Virus record (IMG/VR): IMGVR_UViG_3300011430_000011
Coordinates: 1 to 63,600 of that record
DNA: 63,600 nt
Source of the DNA: a virus
Taxonomy: Duplodnaviria; Caudoviricetes
Strand: one strand, 5' to 3'
Numbering within the stretch: position 1 is the stretch's first letter; each line of letters opens with the position of its first letter. Shown piece by piece: positions 18,881 to 63,600 of this stretch. The translations under genes were made by a program, and so were the position numbers. Under the pieces are notes generated by a model, which saw nothing but the letters and a program-made list of their open reading frames with translations, was not told the DNA's origin and did no database searches.

Positions 18881-19650
18881 TGGCAAAGGTCAAGTATGAC
18901 AACACGAATGTTGAGCCGAGTCAATTCAAGCAGCCGACGCCTGGATTGTACACGGCAAAGATAGATGAAGCGAATCACCGTTCTGATGACGGCCACAATG
19001 ACATCGAGGTTGTCTTCGTCATTGATGGTGGAGAGTTCGATGGAGCCAAGGTCTGGACCTATGTCGGGCTGAGCGAGGCATCTGGTTGGAAGCTGCTCGA
19101 GCTTACTGACGCTCTTGGACTACCCAAGAAGGGTGAGCTAGACACCAACAAGATCGTCAACAAGAAGGTGAAGATCAAGATTAACCCTGATCAGTGGGAG
19201 GGCGAGTACCGTGCCCGCGTTGGTCGTATCTCTCCACTCACTGCCACGCCTGAAGATGACGCCGAGGTTGAAGCTGAGACTGATTCTGAAGAGACAGCAA
19301 CTGAGGAAGCATCTGCCGAAGAGGCTGCTGACTACAGTGAGTGGGAAGTTGCTGAACTGCTCGAGGTCATCACCGATGACTCAGCACTCGCTGAGAAATA
19401 CCCTGGAGGCTACGACGAGGACAGAGATTACCTGACCGGGTTTCTCGAGGCTGCTGACGCCAACGAACTGGATGAGTGGCTTGCCGAGAACAGTGAGACT
19501 GTCGACTACACAACCTGGGACACCGCAGAGCTGAAGGCAGAACTTGAGCGTCGTGGTCTCGATGTCCCGAAGCGTGCTCCGAAGTCAAAGCTCATCGGCC
19601 TGCTCGAAGAGAACGACGGCGACGGGTCAGACCCGTTCGAGTCGGAGTAG
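18880..19650 (+). CDS. DUF669-like ssDNA-binding protein with acidic linker and C-terminal SAP/HeH-like motif
   Basis: PG.Y.AKI; T..ELKAEL..RGL......K..LI..L; acidic tail. Confidence 0.75.
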   Translation: MAKVKYDNTNVEPSQFKQPTPGLYTAKIDEANHRSDDGHNDIEVVFVIDGGEFDGAKVWTYVGLSEASGWKLLELTDALGLPKKGELDTNKIVNKKVKIKINPDQWEGEYRARVGRISPLTATPEDDAEVEAETDSEETATEEASAEEAADYSEWEVAELLEVITDDSALAEKYPGGYDEDRDYLTGFLEAADANELDEWLAENSETVDYTTWDTAELKAELERRGLDVPKRAPKSKLIGLLEENDGDGSDPFESE

Positions 19651-19654
19651 TTCT

Positions 19655-19942
19655 GTGCTCGACGACAATCTCTTCAGGACGCAAGACCTTGCACTAGCCA
19701 CAATCCTTAGTCTTAGTGGCTATAGATACACTCTTGAGTATCAGCTTGGGTCTACTCGTTACGCTGACTTCCTGTTTGATCTCGGCGACGAAGAGTGGGA
19801 GGAACTGGAGAAGATTGTCACAAGGTACGACGAAGGAGAATACGCGGTGGAGCCCAAGGGATTCGTAGAGAGACAGAAGGTAGTTCGTGAAGCTCTCTAC
19901 GATTTCCTTGGCACCCGCGGAAATAGACGCCTCGCTGGCTGA
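19655..19942 (+). CDS. DUF5659-like protein
   Basis: F.T.DLALA..L pattern; GGAG RBS. Confidence 0.6.
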   Translation: MLDDNLFRTQDLALATILSLSGYRYTLEYQLGSTRYADFLFDLGDEEWEELEKIVTRYDEGEYAVEPKGFVERQKVVREALYDFLGTRGNRRLAG

Positions 19943-23250: not shown

Positions 23251-24077
23251 GCAAGGTAGCGATACTCGGTGCAGGACCTTCAGGACTGCTCGCTGCCTAC
23301 GCGGTTGAACGATCGGGTCACGAGCCTGTCATCATCAGCAATGGTCATGGAGCTACTGTCGACAGAAGTATGTTCCTGATGGATAAGATTCCTGGTCTCA
23401 ACTCTCACAACGAGGATTTCGCTCTCGAGGTTGAAGTCAGAGGTACTGCCGAGGGGTACGCACGTCGTGTCTACCGAGACCCTACTGCTCCTGTCTCATT
23501 AGATACCTTTGCCGCTGGGAGTTACATAGTCTGGGGACTACAGGAGACGTACGCAAAGCTCTGGAATATGTACGGAAGTTCTGCTGAGAGACGTAGTGTT
23601 ACTCCCTACGACATCGCAGAGCTTCTCAGTAACTACGAACTTGTGATAAGCACTCTCTACTCACCAGAATTGTGCATCGATGCAGATCATAAGTTCGATA
23701 AGGTAGACACATTCATCGCTCAGCAAGTTGTAACTGAAGAGCCAGACCGCATCTCAACGATGATTTACAACGGCTCTGATGAATGGCAAGAAGGGGTAGC
23801 ACAAACTGCAATCTGGAACTGGTATCGATACTCAGCAATACGGGGTGTAGAAACTTGGGAGTACACACATCTAATTCCTGGGCAGATGAGTATCGGAAAG
23901 AAGCCCATCAGCAACACCTGCGACTGCTGGCAGAGAGCTCCTTCATCTTTTGATAGACCGCAGCAGTTGCACAGAGTTGGCCGATTTGCAAAATGGGAGC
24001 GTGGTGTGATGAACCATCATGCATTCCAGGATACAGTGGCAATCCTCTCAACAGAAGGGATGGGTAGATCAGTATGA
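23247..24077 (+). CDS. FAD/NAD-binding oxidoreductase
   Basis: VAILGAGPSGL Rossmann motif; C-terminal VGRFAKW. Confidence 0.85.
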   Translation: MSKVAILGAGPSGLLAAYAVERSGHEPVIISNGHGATVDRSMFLMDKIPGLNSHNEDFALEVEVRGTAEGYARRVYRDPTAPVSLDTFAAGSYIVWGLQETYAKLWNMYGSSAERRSVTPYDIAELLSNYELVISTLYSPELCIDADHKFDKVDTFIAQQVVTEEPDRISTMIYNGSDEWQEGVAQTAIWNWYRYSAIRGVETWEYTHLIPGQMSIGKKPISNTCDCWQRAPSSFDRPQQLHRVGRFAKWERGVMNHHAFQDTVAILSTEGMGRSV

Positions 24078-24631
24078 GTCCTATGCCCGGATCATTCAGC
24101 GCCTATCTGGCAGCACCCATCTTCGACCAGCATCAACTGGCTGTTGTCGATAGGTTGTACCAAGAGTTACAACTCAGGGACTTCAATGTGTTCAGTCCGT
24201 ATCACGCCAGCCAAGATATCTTCAGAGGTCGTCCTCCGTCAGAATGTACAGCAGAAGAAAGAGCTCTAGTCATTCAAGGGAATATCTCTAACCTGCACTG
24301 CTGGCTGCTGCTTGCATGGGTGGGTGGATATGAAGCAGGCTTCACTGACCCAGGGGTAATATGGGAGATGGGCTATGCAGCCGCACTCAGCGGCGCACCA
24401 GCCGCTTGGAACAACTCTCCCCTCCGACCGCTTACCCTGGCTTACATCGATGAGTCTGACAAGCGACAGAGCATGAATCTGATGCTGTCTGCGACAGTCG
24501 ATGTGGTAGTGAAGGGGATTGCTGATCTTAGAATTGCTCTTCAACTTGCCCGTCTTTGTAAGTACGAAGCTCTAAGGGAGAGATACCATCCGAGAAAAGT
24601 TCTCGGGGGCGAAATGGAGCCAGTTGTATGA
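24074..24631 (+). CDS. Nucleoside 2-deoxyribosyltransferase / nucleotide N-glycosidase family
   Basis: YLAAPIF, FSP, D.GV.WEMGYA, NLML. Confidence 0.85.
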   Translation: MSPMPGSFSAYLAAPIFDQHQLAVVDRLYQELQLRDFNVFSPYHASQDIFRGRPPSECTAEERALVIQGNISNLHCWLLLAWVGGYEAGFTDPGVIWEMGYAAALSGAPAAWNNSPLRPLTLAYIDESDKRQSMNLMLSATVDVVVKGIADLRIALQLARLCKYEALRERYHPRKVLGGEMEPVV

Positions 24632-25000: not shown

Positions 25001-25705
25001 ATGAACCTGTTTGAAGCACTTAACGGGAATGTGCGAAGGCTTCGGCACATCAACAGGTACTCAAGCTATCCGTGTATCAAGCCGGAGTCTGTGGCAGAGC
25101 ACTCTTTTCAAGTTGCCTTCATCTCTTTCCTAATAGGGGAAGATCTGTCTCTTGCTCACAACGAGGACATCAACTTCGCCGTACTTCTAGGCAAAGCTCT
25201 GATGCACGACGTTAGCGAATGTATGTCCGGAGATATCATTCGTACTTACAAGTACAGCTCTGAAGAGATGCGCCTCCAGTGTGAGGCAGCAGACGAGCAG
25301 AATATGGGCATTCTCATGGAAGATTTCCACAACATTGGACCATCTGTATATCACGAATGGAAGCACGCCAAGTCTGCAAACATTGAGGGCGATATTGTCC
25401 GTTTTGCAGATCTTGTAGCGGTCGTAATCTACTGCGCTGAGGAGTGGCATCTCGGCAACCGACAGCTTGATGCAACTCTCGAGCGGTGCTACCGCAACAG
25501 CATCCACCAGTATCACAATCATCCTCTCTTTGAGAAGTACGCCGATCAGATGTTTCCGAGCAGGAGTTTGTTGGCTTGGCGAGAGGCATACCGTCTTGAT
25601 ACGACCTACGGGAACGAGCACGATGTGCATCTAGGTGTGCCAGCAAGAGATCTGGCTCTTCGCATGAAAGGTATGATGGATCCTCACTCTGAAGGTCCAA
25701 CATGA
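25001..25705 (+). CDS. HD-domain 5'-deoxynucleotidase (YfbR/DatZ-like)
   Basis: RY......ESVAEHS; LMHD..E...GDI; V..AD. Confidence 0.88.
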   Translation: MNLFEALNGNVRRLRHINRYSSYPCIKPESVAEHSFQVAFISFLIGEDLSLAHNEDINFAVLLGKALMHDVSECMSGDIIRTYKYSSEEMRLQCEAADEQNMGILMEDFHNIGPSVYHEWKHAKSANIEGDIVRFADLVAVVIYCAEEWHLGNRQLDATLERCYRNSIHQYHNHPLFEKYADQMFPSRSLLAWREAYRLDTTYGNEHDVHLGVPARDLALRMKGMMDPHSEGPT

Positions 25706-57380: not shown

Positions 57381-58207
57381 AGTTCTCTCTTTCCTTCGTG
57401 GATGTGTGAAGAGCTTGTTGGCATCCCAGCAACCGCTGCATCACAGATCGTGCCAATCAGCTGACCCTTCTTGACCTCCTGGTTCAGAGAGATAGCTCTT
57501 GAACCGAAGTGAGTCAGATAGTAGTCAGCATGGTCTGCGACGATATACATGCTCCATCCGTAGGCTGAACCCGGAACACCGCCCTCAATCGGATCTCGAC
57601 CTGACAGTCTCCTGACTGAACCGTCAGAGGGGCAGAGGACTTTCTGTCCGGCTTTGCCGAAGACATCTATGGCAGGATATCCGTCCAGACCGGCAGTCAT
57701 GTGAGTCGCTGTGAAATTGGTCGGAAGCTGAATCGCTGTGGGGTCTGGATGCGGCTCAGGAAGAGTTGAAGGGTGCCAGATCTTGTATGCCTCATTGATC
57801 AAACTGATAGCAACAGAGTCCATTGCCATCTGTCCTTCATTTGGCCCTGTGGGTACTCTGATCGAGCGAAGCAAGTTAAATGTACTTGCTCCAATCCATC
57901 CTGTCGGCTCGATTCCTTGCTGCCGCTGAACGCCCGCAACGCCAGAATCTTTGACCATTCCCGTACCTCGGCCGTGTGAAAACTTGTTGTTGAAATATTC
58001 GTCCCAGTTATCAGGATCCCATGGCAGCCAGCGTTGGGCACGACAGACTGTGCGCTTGTACGCCATCACATCAGGTCCTGGTGGAGAGGGTGCCTTATTC
58101 TCGTCAACAGCGTCTGGTGGATAAAGTGATCGTGGGAAACCGTCCACCACAACCATCGGACCACCCTTATACGGCTCTTCGTACCATTCCATCTTTGCTC
58201 CCTTCAC
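57377..58207 (-). CDS. Endolysin: PG-binding domain plus M23 peptidase
   Basis: GPDV....VQR..GI..TG.IG..T...L; H..G....D; H; HIH. Confidence 0.8.
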   Translation of the reverse strand: MKGAKMEWYEEPYKGGPMVVVDGFPRSLYPPDAVDENKAPSPPGPDVMAYKRTVCRAQRWLPWDPDNWDEYFNNKFSHGRGTGMVKDSGVAGVQRQQGIEPTGWIGASTFNLLRSIRVPTGPNEGQMAMDSVAISLINEAYKIWHPSTLPEPHPDPTAIQLPTNFTATHMTAGLDGYPAIDVFGKAGQKVLCPSDGSVRRLSGRDPIEGGVPGSAYGWSMYIVADHADYYLTHFGSRAISLNQEVKKGQLIGTICDAAVAGMPTSSSHIHEGKREL

Positions 58208-59760
58208 ATGACCATGTCTAGAAGGTCACCGGCGATTGAATTGTTCTTTTTCTTTCCTCCGAGCTTGTGCTCGTCTTCCTTGATTGAACCACGCTTGACG
58301 ATGCTAAGGACACAAGCGTCAGCACGGTCTGGGGACGGCAATCCCCTATCCCTCATGTCGTCCTTACTCTCGATCACAATCTGCCCGGCGTCGTTCTCCC
58401 ACCACTTGATGGAGCCTAGCTGATTGATCAGAAGCTCGTCATCAGGGTCTAGATCGATCAAACCGTCATCCATCAGCACTCTGAAGGTCCAATAGATCTC
58501 TGCGCGACGATTGCGGAATCGCTTCGCATTTCTAGGCTTCTCAGAACCGTAAATCGCTCTGACATTAAGCCCTCGGTGCTTGAGCTTGTCGAAAACACCA
58601 GCACCTACGCCAATGGCGTCGATATTGGCTGCGAGCTTCTTAGCACCATGACTTCTAAGAATCTTCTCGATTCTATCAGCACTTTCTTCAGTATCGAGCT
58701 TTGCCCAGTCATCTTCAAGTCTGATATGGAAGCCACGATTTCGATAGACCACGCTGCGATCTGTGCCGAATCGAGCGATGTCTACACCATACTGGCCAGG
58801 CTCGAGGCCCGGCTGCTGGCAAGCAATCGCCTTCTTGATCATTCTAGGACTGAGTAGAGTATCATCGGTGACCTCTGGAAATTCAGCCTCGATCTTTCCT
58901 TGCCAGCTAGGAGAGCCAATCCCCCAGTCCTTAGCACGATCTTTGACCCAGTTAGGGGATATTAGTTCCTTACTGATGTCTTCAGGAACTGATTCCTCTG
59001 GTCCTATGCGTACTCGCTCGAAGAGCTCGCAGACAGCCTGGGTGAAGTTCGGAGTGCACCAGGCCGGAATTGTGATGACATTCCATCCTGATCCTGGCTT
59101 ACACACTTCAGCGAAGTGTGAACTGGGGTCTTCAGGGTTTCCGATAGCGATTACACGACTGTCGTCGTTGGTGGTAATTGACAAGATTGCATCGAAGAGT
59201 TGTTTGGGAACTCCGTTAGCCTCGTCGATCACCCCGAGCACATAGCGTGCGTGGATTCCCTGAAGAGAGTCTTCATCGTAATCAGCAGGCTTCCGACCCA
59301 TAGCAATGAGTTCCTCAGTGCTATCTCCGATCTTCCGTTTAGCGTGAGCTTCTGCCATGTGCCACTGACAATCTCCCGCGATACGACCTGGCAGCTTACC
59401 CTTCGAGTGAACCCTCTTGAGGTAGCGCCACAGGATCGCTTCAATCTGTGGCCAGCTGGGCGCGGTAGTGAGTGAGAATGCACTGCCCAGCTTGTGTACT
59501 CGCGGATCCATCCACCAACCAATTGCGCGACTGACGATAAAGCTCTTCCCGCTCGCGTGGCAGCTCTTGACTGCTGTTTGCTTATGATCTCTGATGGACT
59601 CTATGACCTCGAGCTGTTTCGACCAGATGAACTCTCCGAGGACATCTTCCATCCACATCTTTGGATTCTCGAGGTACATACTAGAGCGCGGATAGAGCCT
59701 ATCAGCAGCATTCTGCCCTGTTCCCGGTGGAAGACCTGGGCGGGAAGTTATGACTGACAT
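58204..59760 (-). CDS. terL: Terminase large subunit
   Basis: SCHASGKS; IDEA; IGNP; GVDIARFG.D; SPDRADA. Confidence 0.95.
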   Translation of the reverse strand: MSVITSRPGLPPGTGQNAADRLYPRSSMYLENPKMWMEDVLGEFIWSKQLEVIESIRDHKQTAVKSCHASGKSFIVSRAIGWWMDPRVHKLGSAFSLTTAPSWPQIEAILWRYLKRVHSKGKLPGRIAGDCQWHMAEAHAKRKIGDSTEELIAMGRKPADYDEDSLQGIHARYVLGVIDEANGVPKQLFDAILSITTNDDSRVIAIGNPEDPSSHFAEVCKPGSGWNVITIPAWCTPNFTQAVCELFERVRIGPEESVPEDISKELISPNWVKDRAKDWGIGSPSWQGKIEAEFPEVTDDTLLSPRMIKKAIACQQPGLEPGQYGVDIARFGTDRSVVYRNRGFHIRLEDDWAKLDTEESADRIEKILRSHGAKKLAANIDAIGVGAGVFDKLKHRGLNVRAIYGSEKPRNAKRFRNRRAEIYWTFRVLMDDGLIDLDPDDELLINQLGSIKWWENDAGQIVIESKDDMRDRGLPSPDRADACVLSIVKRGSIKEDEHKLGGKKKNNSIAGDLLDMVM

Positions 59761-59972: not shown

Positions 59973-60268
59973 CAGAAGTCTCCTGTACTCGTCTCTGGAT
60001 CGACATTCGGTGTGGTGTCGTCGGGGTTGTGACCTACGATACGTCTGAATGATCTTGTCGCTGCTGGGAAAATGGGTACGAGGCTGTCCTTCTTGGTGAC
60101 GTACAGATCCATTGGGCCCGGATCGAAGGCGTTGCAGTTCAGACAGTAGCGTGCGTTGGGTTTCGGGTCTCCTGTGCCTGCCTGCTGGACTGCTACCCAC
60201 TCGTGTGTGCCGTCAAGTTCCCGCTCTGTGCAAGGGGTGAGCGGGTCACCCATCCTGATGCTACTCAT
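59972..60268 (-). CDS. Hypothetical Zn-binding protein
   Basis: C...H.W...CLNC. Confidence 0.6.
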   Translation of the reverse strand: MSSIRMGDPLTPCTERELDGTHEWVAVQQAGTGDPKPNARYCLNCNAFDPGPMDLYVTKKDSLVPIFPAATRSFRRIVGHNPDDTTPNVDPETSTGDF

Positions 60269-60560
60269 GAGATCACGCTGTCAGCTCGACCTTCAGCTCT
60301 TCGTCGAAGAGCAGCAGTCGAGCAAAGTATCTAGTACGACCATGCTCCAGCGCTAGGGAGACACCCAGGAGACAACAACCTAGCTGATCAGCTAGTTGTT
60401 CGGCTCTTGCTCTCGCTTTACTCCAGTCATTCCGGTTCATGATCATCTTTACTACCCTCCTTCGGCTCTGTTTGGTACCTTCTGGAGATCTATGGACTTG
60501 GCTGTTAGACTCTTGGTGGCCGAGGACACCCTCCGCACTCACCGTAGAGTCATTGTGCTG

Positions 60561-60773
60561 CTACTCTTTCTCGAAGGTGACTGTGTACGCCTGTCCCTCT
60601 TCGAACTGATCAGCAGCTAGCTCGTTCTTGATGGTCAAACGAATCATGCCTGCGGGTGTCGCTGCAGCCCACTCGGCATTACGGCCTTCGCCGTAATCAG
60701 GAACTAGCTCAACTTCGTGAGCCCAGTTCATATTCGACTTTCTTGCCACCTTGAACTTCGCTGTCACAGCCAT
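60561..60773 (-). CDS. Small conserved phage protein (N..WA.ATP.G.I...I.N)
   Basis: Recognisable motif; GAGGAG RBS. Confidence 0.75.
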   Translation of the reverse strand: MAVTAKFKVARKSNMNWAHEVELVPDYGEGRNAEWAAATPAGMIRLTIKNELAADQFEEGQAYTVTFEKE

Positions 60774-60824
60774 TCCATTACTCCTCTCTTGGTTGACGGT
60801 GGTGAAGCCTAGCTGAGCGGTCGG

Positions 60825-60992
60825 CTAGCGTGCGCCAGCCCGCTGTCTGAGCTGTTTGCGCTTGGTCATGTGGTAGAACCCGCAATACATGCAGAGGTAT
60901 AGTCCGCGGTACACACCTGGCTTGAGGTCTCCTGCTGCTTTACCGGCGTCGAGGTACTTCTTCTTCCCGGTCTTTTCGCATCGCTTAGCCAT
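60825..60992 (-). CDS. Small Zn-finger protein, 55 aa
   Basis: C..GKKKY...YLC.YC.FYH.T. Confidence 0.65.
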   Translation of the reverse strand: MAKRCEKTGKKKYLDAGKAAGDLKPGVYRGLYLCMYCGFYHMTKRKQLRQRAGAR

Positions 60993-61959
60993 GCTCGATG
61001 ACTGGTAGACTCGGGTCGCCGAGTTGTGGCTGGGTGTTGTCGAGCATCATCAACTTCTGTGGTACGATGATCGCTGCCTGATCACGGAGCTTGTTGCGTA
61101 GGGTCTGTGGAATATTCGGGTTGTCCCAGATTAGGGTTGTTAGGATGCCCTCCACAAGTCTACTGATTAGTTCTCCGTACATCTCGGCAGCTCGCACTAG
61201 ACGTTCATTCAGCCCGACATCGAGCGCCATCTTGGCGTGCTTCGCTAGCCGCTCTTGAGCCTGCTCGTACTTCTTGGCAGCGAGCACGAGCTGCTGCCCC
61301 ATGATGGTCTCTTCGGCGTACCACGGGTTGTCGTCTGTATTTGTAACGGTAGCCGTTTTACTCTTACCGTTGGTCTGTTCGTGGATTGTCTGCAAGCGCA
61401 CAACCTCTTGACGCCAATAAAGTGTGTCTCCTGCCGACATCCGTATCAGCCACAAGAGCGCATTTAACGGGTCGATCTCGAATTCTGCTCCTAGTAGTCG
61501 GTTCAGCTCGTCGTTCCAACTCTTTCTGAGGTGCGTCGGAGCATTTCCCCCATGGTATTTGCACCGTCCTGTTCCGGGGTGAGGCGTTCCCCACCCTGGC
61601 GGCATACCGCAAGCTCCGCCTCCGTTCTTTGCCCTCTTCTTGGCCCCACAGATTTCACCTACCATTCTCGCTGCTCCCTTCGGCTTTCTTACTTCATAGA
61701 ATGTTGGGCGATTCTCCATGCTTTCAGGATTGTCCGGGTCCTTCCAGCGTTCTGGTCCGTATGGCCCGTTTTCTTTCGTGCTCTTTTTCTTGATTTTGAT
61801 GCTGGGGAGAGTCCTGGTTTTTGGCCGCGAGGCTTTTATTCTTTCACGTTTGCGGTTCTTTCGATTGTTTCGTAGAGCGTTATCCGATTTTGTTAGATTT
61901 TCTTGTTGTTCCTTTGTTGGATTTTTAATTTTCTGTCCGGGACCGAGGCTGTTGGGCAT
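60985..61959 (-). CDS. Terminase small subunit-like protein (HGGxSTG-type Zn motif)
   Basis: CGAK......C....GWGT.H.G.GRCKYHGG; AAGGGAG RBS; first late gene. Confidence 0.75.
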   Translation of the reverse strand: MPNSLGPGQKIKNPTKEQQENLTKSDNALRNNRKNRKRERIKASRPKTRTLPSIKIKKKSTKENGPYGPERWKDPDNPESMENRPTFYEVRKPKGAARMVGEICGAKKRAKNGGGACGMPPGWGTPHPGTGRCKYHGGNAPTHLRKSWNDELNRLLGAEFEIDPLNALLWLIRMSAGDTLYWRQEVVRLQTIHEQTNGKSKTATVTNTDDNPWYAEETIMGQQLVLAAKKYEQAQERLAKHAKMALDVGLNERLVRAAEMYGELISRLVEGILTTLIWDNPNIPQTLRNKLRDQAAIIVPQKLMMLDNTQPQLGDPSLPVIEHG

Positions 61960-62080
61960 TGTCTTGCTCCCTTCTCTTCGTAACAGGGTACTGTAGCTCA
62001 TCTATATTGATGTGCAAAATGCGAGTAATTTACCGAGAAGATAACAGAGCTCCAAAAGGATGGACGCGTGTCACACCGCA

Positions 62081-62908
62081 ATAGGGGACCCTTCGCGTAT
62101 TTTCGTAGCCTAACTAGTAAACGTTTACTAGGCGGTAAACGTAGCCTAACTAGTAAACGCGGCCGGTACCCCCTAAGGGTACCCGCAAACATCCTAGCCG
62201 GGGGTTCGAGGGTATACCGTAGAGCCCTACGTTTTCCCCGCTAATAGGGGCTTTTTACCGCCCCGTCGGGCTATACCCTCCCCCGGTATTCGGTCGGTAC
62301 CCCTTAGCCCGACGGGGCGTATACGAAGTTTACCGTTTAGGCTACGCCCGGCGGCCGTTTACCGCTTAGGCTACTAGTAGCCTAACTAGGCTACGGACCT
62401 TTACTACTTAGAAGTCGGTATAACCCCTTATACCCCCGGGGGGTAACCCCGCGGCTAAACTACCGGGGCGCGGCCGGAGTTACCTAACCGGCGGCGGCGG
62501 TAAGGGGTACCCGTAAGGGGTCCTAAAAATCCGGTCTAACTAAAGCGCGCTACGCGGCGGTCGCCCCCGCCTCCGGACTATAAGCCTAGCTACCCTAAGG
62601 GGACGGTATAACCTACCCCTAAGGAGGCACTAAGGTGCTAAGCTGCGACGCCGTAAGTAAGCCTACGGTACGCTACCTAAGACGGTACCGTAAAACAGCT
62701 ACGGCTAACGGCCCGGCGGGTAGTTCCTACCTAAGCCGGATCGTAAGCGGGGAGCGCTGCCTAAGTGAAGCCGTAGTAACTAAGACCATAAACGGCCATA
62801 CCGTAAGGCGCTGCCTAACCCACCTAAGTAGCTACGGGATCGGCCCGCAGTAAGCGGACCGTCCCCTTAGGGTAGCGGGGCTAGCCTAAAGGGACCTTTC
62901 GGGTAAGA
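62081..62908. other. CA/TG-depleted, palindrome-rich island (probable genome end or divergent control region)
   Basis: No CA or TG in 62081-62185, 62192-62627 or 62854-62908 by my reading. Confidence 0.85.
62635..62853 (+). CDS. 72-aa basic Cys/His protein with extreme codon choice
   Basis: AAGGAGG RBS, GTG start; all 6 Leu CTA, all 6 internal Val GTA. Confidence 0.65.
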   Translation: MLSCDAVSKPTVRYLRRYRKTATANGPAGSSYLSRIVSGERCLSEAVVTKTINGHTVRRCLTHLSSYGIGPQ

Positions 62909-62938
62909 CATCACCCACCCGAAAGAAAGGAGCCAATC

Positions 62939-63211
62939 ATGGCCCTGAAGATGACTCCCAGCGAGGCTGCCGAGGTAAAGCAGACGAGCGGCACCTACAT
63001 CGAGGCGCAGTACCGCGCACCGATCGAGCAGGCACTCAAGGAGAAAGCCGACCTCAAGCACATCGAGCTCGACTTCCCTGCCGTCCGCCCAGCTCACGTT
63101 CACTTCAAGCTGAAGCGACTTCTCAGCGAGGAGGACGCAAAGCAGGTCCGCGTCGGCAAGCACGAGACTCACGGCGTCTGCCTCATCTACATGAATGGCA
63201 CCGGCAGCTAG
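62939..63211 (+). CDS. Hypothetical early protein
   Basis: AAAGGAG RBS; normal codon usage. Confidence 0.8.
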   Translation: MALKMTPSEAAEVKQTSGTYIEAQYRAPIEQALKEKADLKHIELDFPAVRPAHVHFKLKRLLSEEDAKQVRVGKHETHGVCLIYMNGTGS

Positions 63212-63283
63212 CGACTAGCAACAGGGTAAGATACCAACGACGGTGTCTTACCCGAAGGGTCCCAAAGCGAAAAGCGAACAAAG

Positions 63284-63477
63284 CTCTGCTTCGTGAGGAG
63301 CTCTGGGTGGACATAGAGCGGGAACAGACCGGTAAGCCGGAATGGGAACGCGGCAAACCGTAAACCCCGACACCCGTCCCAGGGTAGCAGCGAACCATAA
63401 GCCGAAGCTGAAGGAGCTCAAGAGGCTGAGAGGTAGCAAAAAGCCAAGCGCAGCCCCGAGCTTCTCACCAAGCAGAG
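63284..63477 (+). ncRNA. Candidate structured RNA, 194 nt
   Basis: 63284-63303 pairs with 63458-63477 at 19 of 20 positions; internal hairpins. Confidence 0.5.
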
Positions 63478-63600
63478 ATCGAAAGGAGCCGAAAATGAAG
63501 AACGGCTTGCACTGGTAAGCAGAGAAACATGTCTCAACCCATGACACAACAGGATAAGTTAGACTTCCTGCAATCCGAAAAGCACCAAAACCACCGTACC

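Follow-up and report, generated by a model that had tools for sequence, protein, structure and literature searches.

A conserved island poor in CA and TG, and the codon bias of a small gene within it, in genomes of uncultured siphoviruses

Ocr of phage T7 is an acidic mimic of DNA. According to PMC11863960 and to the T7 annotation, the T7 genome's leading end, an internalisation signal of about 850 bp, is ejected first, and gene 0.3 (ocr) is the first gene. Selection on short DNA words is known in other forms, namely restriction-site avoidance and genome-wide depletion of protospacer adjacent motifs (PAMs), which are independent of coding and symmetric between strands. Cas12c1, according to PMC9723637, has the two-base PAM 5'-TG-3'; such an element flanks a double-stranded DNA (dsDNA) target in either orientation, so that DNA devoid of TG and CA offers no target. 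Here we describe, in the virus record IMGVR_UViG_3300011430_000011 (positions 1 to 63,600, the whole stretch that was analysed, hereafter the window), an island from which the dinucleotides CA and TG are almost excluded, together with the 72-codon open reading frame (ORF) that it contains, ORF72.

Like the T7 leading end, the island is shorter than 1 kb, stands at the start of the early arm and carries what is plausibly the first early gene, a small one. Sizes are also close: the three measured islands have 829, 937 and 808 bp, against the 850 bp or so given for T7 in PMC11863960. The T7 left end is unlike the island in its normal CA/TG density (18-35 steps per 200 nt, with a longest gap of 38 nt), and the density is likewise normal at both ends of Streptomyces phage JackieB, one of the closest cultured relatives by its large terminase (TerL). 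The ban is thus no common property of phage ends. This phage also differs from T7 in that it is a siphovirus with a basic ORF72 protein, that no RNA polymerase gene was seen among the window genes, and that first entry of the island end is putative. Compared with known motif avoidance, with which it shares selection on short words whatever the coding or strand, the island stands apart: the word has two bases, its exclusion is near-absolute and confined to less than 1 kb, it removes His, Gln and Cys from proteins, and palindromes are not depleted. The likeness of these phages to targets of Cas12c1-type effectors is one of logic only. At the level of titles and abstract openings, no description of a localised dinucleotide ban or of a PAM-free leading region in phages was found in the literature.

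The island and the genes that bear on it are the following.

62080-62908, no strand: CA/TG-exclusion island, 829 bp, with the packaging/late arm running leftward and the early/replication arm running rightward on either side of it
62621-62627, + strand: Shine-Dalgarno sequence AAGGAGG, read directly, 7 nt before the GTG start of ORF72
62635-62853, + strand: ORF72, 72 amino acids and a TAA stop, GTG start; basic protein with conserved Cys4, Cys42, Cys60 and His63, from a new family of 17 members
62939-63211, + strand: ORF90, the gene after ORF72, outside the ban

We counted 13 CA/TG steps in the island, where about 100 are expected. Its longest gap without either dinucleotide (62190-62628) measures 438 nt, against 66 nt for the longest gap elsewhere in the window; at the genome frequency of 0.141 CA/TG per position, our arithmetic from these counts puts the chance of such a gap at about 1e-29. 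Observed-to-expected ratios (O/E) were 0.14 for CA, 0.11 for TG, 2.79 for TA and 1.18 for CG. ORF72 makes up only the right-hand third of the island, and the 555 nt of non-coding DNA upstream of it contain 3 CA and no TG. The ban thus spans non-coding DNA, codon boundaries and both strands. Public assembly contigs covering the island showed no base differences. A scan for sigma-70-like promoters returned one site (61980-62008, against 0.5±0.8 expected, not significant), and the only Rfam hit at E<=1 was the hammerhead HH9 (19.3 bits for a gathering score of 52, E 0.14), which we take as chance.

Within ORF72, all 6 Leu codons are CTA, all 6 internal Val codons are GTA (the start being GTG), and Ser is encoded by AGC (4), AGT (4) and TCC (1). 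The three Cys codons are TGC. Only 10 CA/TG steps are left, 7 of which are forced by the GTG start, 3 Cys, 2 His and 1 Gln; the three unforced ones are ACA at 62696, AGT|GAA at 62766 and ACC|ATA at 62787. Synonymous resampling with genome codon usage gave 28.8±3.3 steps, with 17 as the lowest of 5000 draws and 7 as the theoretical minimum. Control genes behaved normally, with 35 steps seen against 37.2 resampled for ORF90 (34.7±3.5 under uniform resampling), 127 against 128.9 for a TerS-like gene of the leftward arm, and 19 against 20.1 for ORF58. ORF90 uses mainly CTC (5 Leu, with 2 CTG and 1 CTT) and GTC (4 Val, with 1 GTA and 1 GTT). The original prediction, made from the letters of this stretch, had pointed to a strong AAGGAGG ribosome-binding site, to a 72-codon ORF with this Leu, Val and Ser usage, to mostly forced remaining CA/TG steps, to ordinary codons in the gene at 62939, and to a basic protein with three Cys and a CxxH motif; each of these readings agrees with our counts, with an isoelectric point (pI) of 10.15, a net charge of +7.6 at pH 7 and Cys60-Leu-Thr-His63 as the CxxH.

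The same prediction attributed the CTA and GTA codons to the CA/TG ban. The ban is real, but it does not suffice alone, since CTC, CTT, GTC and GTT are also free of CA and TG. A second, weaker depletion accompanies it in the window island, of GA/TC (O/E 0.41) and AT (0.46), so that runs of A and T take the shape T...A. Exclusive use of CTA and GTA is found because this avoidance of GA/TC and AT adds to the CA/TG ban. The second depletion was seen only in the window and in one relative, L005, and the island genes of other lineages use mainly CTC and GTC.

We compared five related DNA records: L005, whose TerL is 79% identical to that of the window and whose contig ends inside its own island; L012, a contig of the window phage itself; G001, a 129,757-bp IMG/VR contig rated 100% complete, which is in fact two genomes about 85% identical fused head to tail; L013, a metagenome contig; and G003, of 66,437 bp. 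A CA/TG-poor island at the late/early junction was present in 5/5 records, with sizes from 0.5 to 0.95 kb across lineages. L005 has no CA/TG in its terminal 267 nt. G001 has 6 in the 937 nt of its junction, none in 423 nt at one end and 4 in 611 nt at the other, and L013 has 2 in 452 non-coding nt. In G003 the gaps are of 236, 122, 91 and 86 nt, all within 19395-19930, with a maximum of 49 nt away from the junction region at 17.8-19.9 kb. Non-coding CA/TG O/E lies between 0.00 and 0.06 in all islands, with one gap of at least 267 nt and others of 392, 423, 303, 424 and 236 nt. Two complete genomes, the window and G003, were scanned over their whole length, and each has a single strict island. 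The islands hardly align with one another, and CA/TG is the sole depletion that they all share: GA/TC, depleted in the window and L005, is enriched in the others.

Each island contains one small gene: ORF72 in the window, genes of 124 and 135 amino acids in the two copies of G001, of 112 in L013 and of 122 in G003, the last pointing the opposite way, toward TerL. These genes carry few CA/TG steps (10 in ORF72, 3 in G001 geneX and 2 in its second copy, 15 in L013, 3 in G003), with resampling z scores of -5.0 for ORF72, -7.6 for G001 geneX and -4.4 for L013. No similarity among island genes could be detected across lineages (blastp E>=0.05; tblastn against the window, E>=0.79). The four island genes of the relatives encode no Cys, no His and no Gln, and Met only as the start; there the ban overrides protein content.

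Homologues of ORF72 do exist in G001, L013 and G003, but outside the strict island. They have 9.5-10.1 CA/TG per 100 nt, against 4.6 in ORF72, and mixed Leu and Val codons; two of them showed mild depletion upon resampling (z -1.9 and -2.2), and the third gene of L013 showed none (z 0.4). Homologues with the codons of ORF72 outside any biased island would have refuted the original prediction, by its own terms; ordinary codons were found there instead. The codon bias of ORF72 is therefore positional: it comes from the site of the gene in the island, and is a property neither of the gene nor of its translation. The original prediction that selection acts on DNA words rather than on translation was right, and more widely than it had seen, as the ban covers non-coding DNA and both strands and follows position, not gene family.

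Could the ban nevertheless serve translation, by keeping a long untranslated leader free of ATG, GTG and TTG on both strands? Over the 2239 pooled non-coding island positions these triplets number 0 against 101 expected, and the window has no TG after 62079 until the GTG with which ORF72 begins. However, CTG (1 against 49 expected) and CAG (0 against 51) are banned as strictly as the start triplets over the same positions, and the ban persists inside coding sequences and across codon boundaries. This largely refutes a start-codon-free leader, to which we give hardly any credence.

A local hypermutation destroying CA and TG, of the kind produced by repeat-induced point mutation (RIP) or by a deaminase, would be expected to convert CA to TA, and TA is indeed enriched in every island (O/E 1.05-3.12). 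But C-to-T deamination would lower GC and create TG from CG, whereas island GC is above that of the surroundings (0.55-0.70 against 0.52-0.59) and CpG is in excess everywhere except in the L005 island (O/E 1.18-1.67, against 0.88 in L005). Moreover, forced Cys, His and Trp codons persist, and the island gene shows no clear rise in synonymous divergence (dS 0.67, against 0.46 for a neighbouring gene outside the island). We favour selection over mutation bias because GC and CpG are raised and dS is comparable inside and outside; RIP-like mutation is ruled out on these grounds as far as we can judge, its remaining likelihood being negligible.

The length of ORF72 says little by itself: the longest stop-free run of the island is 76 codons, a value matched or exceeded in 25% of 1000 dinucleotide-preserving shuffles. 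A phmmer search of 1.84 billion representative proteins returned, besides ORF72, 8 matches at E<=0.001. Six of these are small proteins with a Cys/Cys/Cys/His pattern, and the small homologues are 43-49% identical to ORF72 and keep Cys, Cys and Cys-x2-His. A profile search brought the count to 17 members, all of them lacking a Pfam domain and bearing uninformative names. Eight columns are invariant (R19, G29, Y32, C42, A46, R59, C60 and H63). C42, C60 and H63 are thus found in 17/17 members, and the N-terminal Cys is present in all, displaced by a few residues in P0005, P0010 and P0018. A strong Shine-Dalgarno sequence of the AAGGAGG type precedes all 5 copies for which DNA was available (ORF72 and 4 homologues), and the ratio of nonsynonymous to synonymous divergence (dN/dS) between the two G001 copies is 0.21. 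A chance ORF is ruled out by the homologues and this dN/dS; judged from sequence, ORF72 is a genuine protein-coding gene, as the original prediction had supposed, and belongs to a new family of small Cys3-His proteins. The DNA records of the family that we examined come from uncultured siphoviruses with genomes of about 64-66 kb, whole or in pieces, the longest contigs measuring 63.7, 65.6 and 66.4 kb.

Comparisons with described proteins were negative throughout. ORF72 matched no family of Pfam, PHROGs or NCBIfam at E<=0.1, its sequence profile found nothing in the PDB at E<=1, and tblastn of P0002 against 50,697 phage records gave no match. The best AlphaFold2 model has a mean predicted local distance difference test (pLDDT) score of 82.6, the other four ranging from 61.9 to 67.3. 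It is rich in beta strands with a C-terminal helix, and Cys-x2-His opens a short helix after a beta-hairpin. Foldseek found no significant match in the PDB (best E 0.78), a wide VIA-align search gave at best a B-box domain (Z 2.5, 36 residues aligned), and in the ESM Atlas the best feature score of ORF72, 0.80, is within the range of chance. ORF72 resembles treble-clef and zinc-ribbon modules in its four conserved ligand-type residues and in the Cys-x2-His at a helix start after a beta-hairpin, but differs from them in having no significant structural match, no PDB sequence match and no Pfam family. From the conserved residues and the charge, we infer that the Cys/His set forms a structural zinc site and that the protein may bind nucleic acid early in infection. 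A nuclease of the HNH/beta-beta-alpha-Me type was also considered and rejected: such enzymes conserve a catalytic His where the first strand of the beta-beta-alpha unit ends, but the His preceding Arg59-Cys60 gives way to Arg in P0001, P0004 and P0006 and to Asn in P0017, and no HNH family was matched.

It had been proposed that ORF72 is the first-expressed anti-defence or host-takeover factor, with a role analogous to that of T7 Ocr, and the island can be seen in the same way as leading DNA stripped of sites for restriction-modification or bacteriophage exclusion (BREX) systems. On the + strand arm, which bears the replication genes, ORF72 comes first among the ORFs, and it has a strong ribosome-binding site. 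The island slot is filled by unrelated genes in different lineages, and gene turnover of this kind is typical of accessory and anti-defence loci. The resemblance in size and position to the T7 leading end, set out above, also speaks for this proposal. However, the protein is strongly basic where Ocr is acidic, it has no family or fold match (although a family relation can exist without a match in fold), and its homologues in G001, L013 and G003 are not the gene found in the strict island; the T7 left end, for its part, has no CA/TG ban. Nor is the island poor in restriction sites. Its four-bp palindromes number 60 and its six-bp palindromes 22, where four control windows of equal length gave 40-51 and 2-18, a density put at about twice that of the controls, and by simple counting a CA/TG ban removes just 2/16 four-bp and 16/64 six-bp palindromes. 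Palindromic 4-, 6- and 8-mers are equal to or slightly below the expectation from dinucleotide shuffles, so that generic restriction-site avoidance can be set aside. Both the Ocr analogy and the evasion of restriction or BREX thus fared poorly, and we consider them unlikely.

The reading that we favour, with a probability of roughly 0.7, is that ORF72 is a real gene with a putative zinc site, that its codon bias is positional and stems from a conserved CA/TG-free island, and that purifying selection against a two-base element, recognised on dsDNA, maintains this island. A reader of CA/TG on dsDNA is suggested because the ban is strand-symmetric, two-base, near-absolute, fading over the next gene, and strong enough to override amino-acid choice.

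What this reader might be is a separate matter. By analogy with Cas12c1, the island could reflect evasion of a DNA-targeting agent that needs TG/CA beside its target, such as a type V CRISPR effector with a 5'-TG PAM; we hold this, our foremost guess, to be possible rather than probable. Such an agent would act where the genome is laid open earliest, near its end and the gene expressed first. Should the early side be the first to enter, the island DNA would be exposed at a time when no phage protein has yet been made. TG/CA might be needed by the host system for interference, or for acquiring spacers as the DNA end enters. With every escape mutation one further TG/CA site would be lost, until the zone is free of the element. 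Island proteins would then do without His, Gln and Cys unless these are essential, as the ORF72 zinc ligands may be, and the island slot would hold a function needed before the rest of the genome is safe. TG is absent on both strands, as a PAM-free zone requires (see the non-coding O/E of all islands above). As context and not as evidence here, a preprint (10.64898/2026.10.15.759504) reports spacers mapping to earlier genome positions in Acr-carrying Pseudomonas phages.

The ban might equally be intrinsic to the phage. Either the island has to escape an enzyme of the phage's own that acts at CA/TG, for instance a nuclease that cuts often or an enzyme that modifies DNA, or packaging, ejection or replication at the genome end needs CA/TG-free DNA in cis. 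The ban is kept in all five records, though the islands barely align and differ in all other composition traits, there is one strict island in each of the two complete genomes examined, and the island adjoins the packaging genes. It also holds repeated elements, as follows.

62105-62122 and 62141-62158, + strand: two copies of the 18-mer GTAGCCTAA-N3-GTAAAC, from a repeat search
62328-62345 and 62357-62374, - strand: two copies of the same 18-mer in opposite orientation, from the same search
62202-62227, no strand: imperfect palindrome I14, with assembly contig ends at 62213 and 62223, a weak hint of a possible genome terminus

The 18-mers, in both orientations, and the palindrome at the contig ends likewise favour an intrinsic cause. 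In the window the GTAGCCTAA-N3-GTAAAC motif is confined to the island; L005 has it too, as does the left end of G001. On the other hand, four families of candidate enzymes were tested, and the genome has no methyltransferase of the N6/N4, C5 or Dam type and no TGT/DpdA-type enzyme; no nuclease was identified among the early genes, of which 10 ORFs have no Pfam match. In G001 and L013 the depletion fades into the next gene (z about -2), which suits a graded pressure better than a fixed cis element, and no signal for packaging or replication is known to us that extends over 0.8 kb and takes precedence over the choice of amino acids. A phage-intrinsic cause seems to us doubtful taken by itself, and about equally likely as evasion of a TG PAM; the layout of G003 fits neither neatly.

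Several points weigh against the favoured reading or its extension to a host defence. An island free of PAMs gives no protection when the remaining genome is exposed simultaneously, and a staged entry of the DNA is hypothetical. A phage-intrinsic cause would account more simply than a common host defence for the conservation of the island in lineages that have diverged. In G003, about 700 nt of normal CA/TG density separate the island from the ORF72 homologue, which misfits a simple picture of distance from the end, and the island gene is directed toward the packaging genes. There is a weak hint of the terminus, from contig ends in 2/4 runs and from a G001 contig that ends within its own island. 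As to the protein, one of the five AlphaFold2 models is confident and it has no fold match, and the arguments for zinc and nucleic-acid binding are limited to conserved residues and charge.

If the favoured reading is true, a local constraint at the DNA level can dictate the synonymous codons, and even the permitted amino acids, of a phage protein. A stretch of at least 300 nt without CA or TG would then be a signature with which to search for such zones in uncultured phages. The identity of the CA/TG reader would reveal either a two-base-specific defence that shapes phage genomes or a new need of phage DNA handling, and the ORF72 family, together with the unrelated genes of the island slot, would be candidates for the earliest functions of infection.

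A genome terminus inside the island is possible. In run X1, a contig of 63,611 nt starts at 62223 and ends at 62213, with an overlap of 11 nt, and in X4 a contig end also lies at 62223. Contigs thus end at 62213/62223 in 2/4 runs, and those of X2 and X3 cross the spot. A short unitig at about 2.7 times the depth of its flanks was observed in 2/4 runs, at 62015-62236 in X2 (25.7 against 8.8 and 9.35) and at 62046-62273 in X3 (19.9 against 7.88 and 6.96); it may represent a terminal direct repeat, or else a segment common to strains that occur together. In G001, CA/TG-free islands contain the junction as well as the two contig ends, beside a hairpin palindrome (loci L007, L010 and L011).

ORF72 is also bracketed by an inverted repeat.

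62583-62607, + strand: 5' arm of the inverted repeat, 25 nt, 92% complementary to 62858-62882
62858-62882, + strand: 3' arm of the inverted repeat, 25 nt, partner of 62583-62607

This stem is present in both the minimum free energy and the centroid RNA fold of 62575-62890 (z = -4.06, with 0/100 shuffles folding as well). A second inverted repeat, I2 (20 nt, 95% complementary), brackets ORF90 at 62891-62910 and 63244-63263, and a related 15-mer occupies 62085-62099. A long-range RNA stem may close each of the successive early genes, and these stems could be processing or stability elements. In parallel with those of ORF72 and ORF90, the island gene of G001 is flanked by two similar strong hairpins, identified by eye (L011, 3101-3137 and 3645-3684). 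In G003, the stretch of about 700 nt next to the island (L017, 2200-2900) is, by eye, full of short repeated motifs and has the look of an iteron-type origin or a regulatory array.

The record itself is a complete virus record of 63,600 bp in IMG/VR, its completeness being rated by CheckV. It is circularly permuted: the ORF starting at 63531 runs on in frame into positions 3-224, and the metagenome contig L012 spans the end and the start of the record, with 2 mismatches in 3454 nt. The public runs that contain the window sequence are labelled as groundwater and freshwater sediment metagenomes, with no RNA run among those listed. Genes of the + strand arm encode a helicase, a primase-helicase, a large DNA polymerase, ThyX and an HD 5'-deoxynucleotidase, and the - strand arm carries tail, head and packaging genes, closed by TerL and, upstream of it, a 338-aa gene.

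58204-59760, - strand: TerL, matching phrog_2
60985-62001, - strand: 338-aa "TerS-like" gene, first gene of the leftward arm, matching phrog_3678 (function unknown) with E 1.6e-13

The 338-aa gene is assumed to encode the small terminase from its position only. Its protein, for which phrog_3678 was the only match, contains a Cys-Lys-Tyr-His-Gly-Gly stretch. The nearest cultured relatives by TerL are at most 40% identical. A blastn search of 60000-63600 against the 50,697 phage records gave no match, and no related loci were found with the 338-aa protein, ORF90 and P0017 as queries.

Two further observations concern the rest of the window. The longest TA-free gap of the genome is 353 nt (2429-2782), of borderline significance by rough arithmetic. 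Upstream of the DNA polymerase gene, on the + strand, are genes for a nucleoside 2-deoxyribosyltransferase-like protein (24074-24631) and for a YfbR-like HD 5'-deoxynucleotidase (25001-25705), with ThyX downstream, a set that suggests manipulation of the nucleotide pool.

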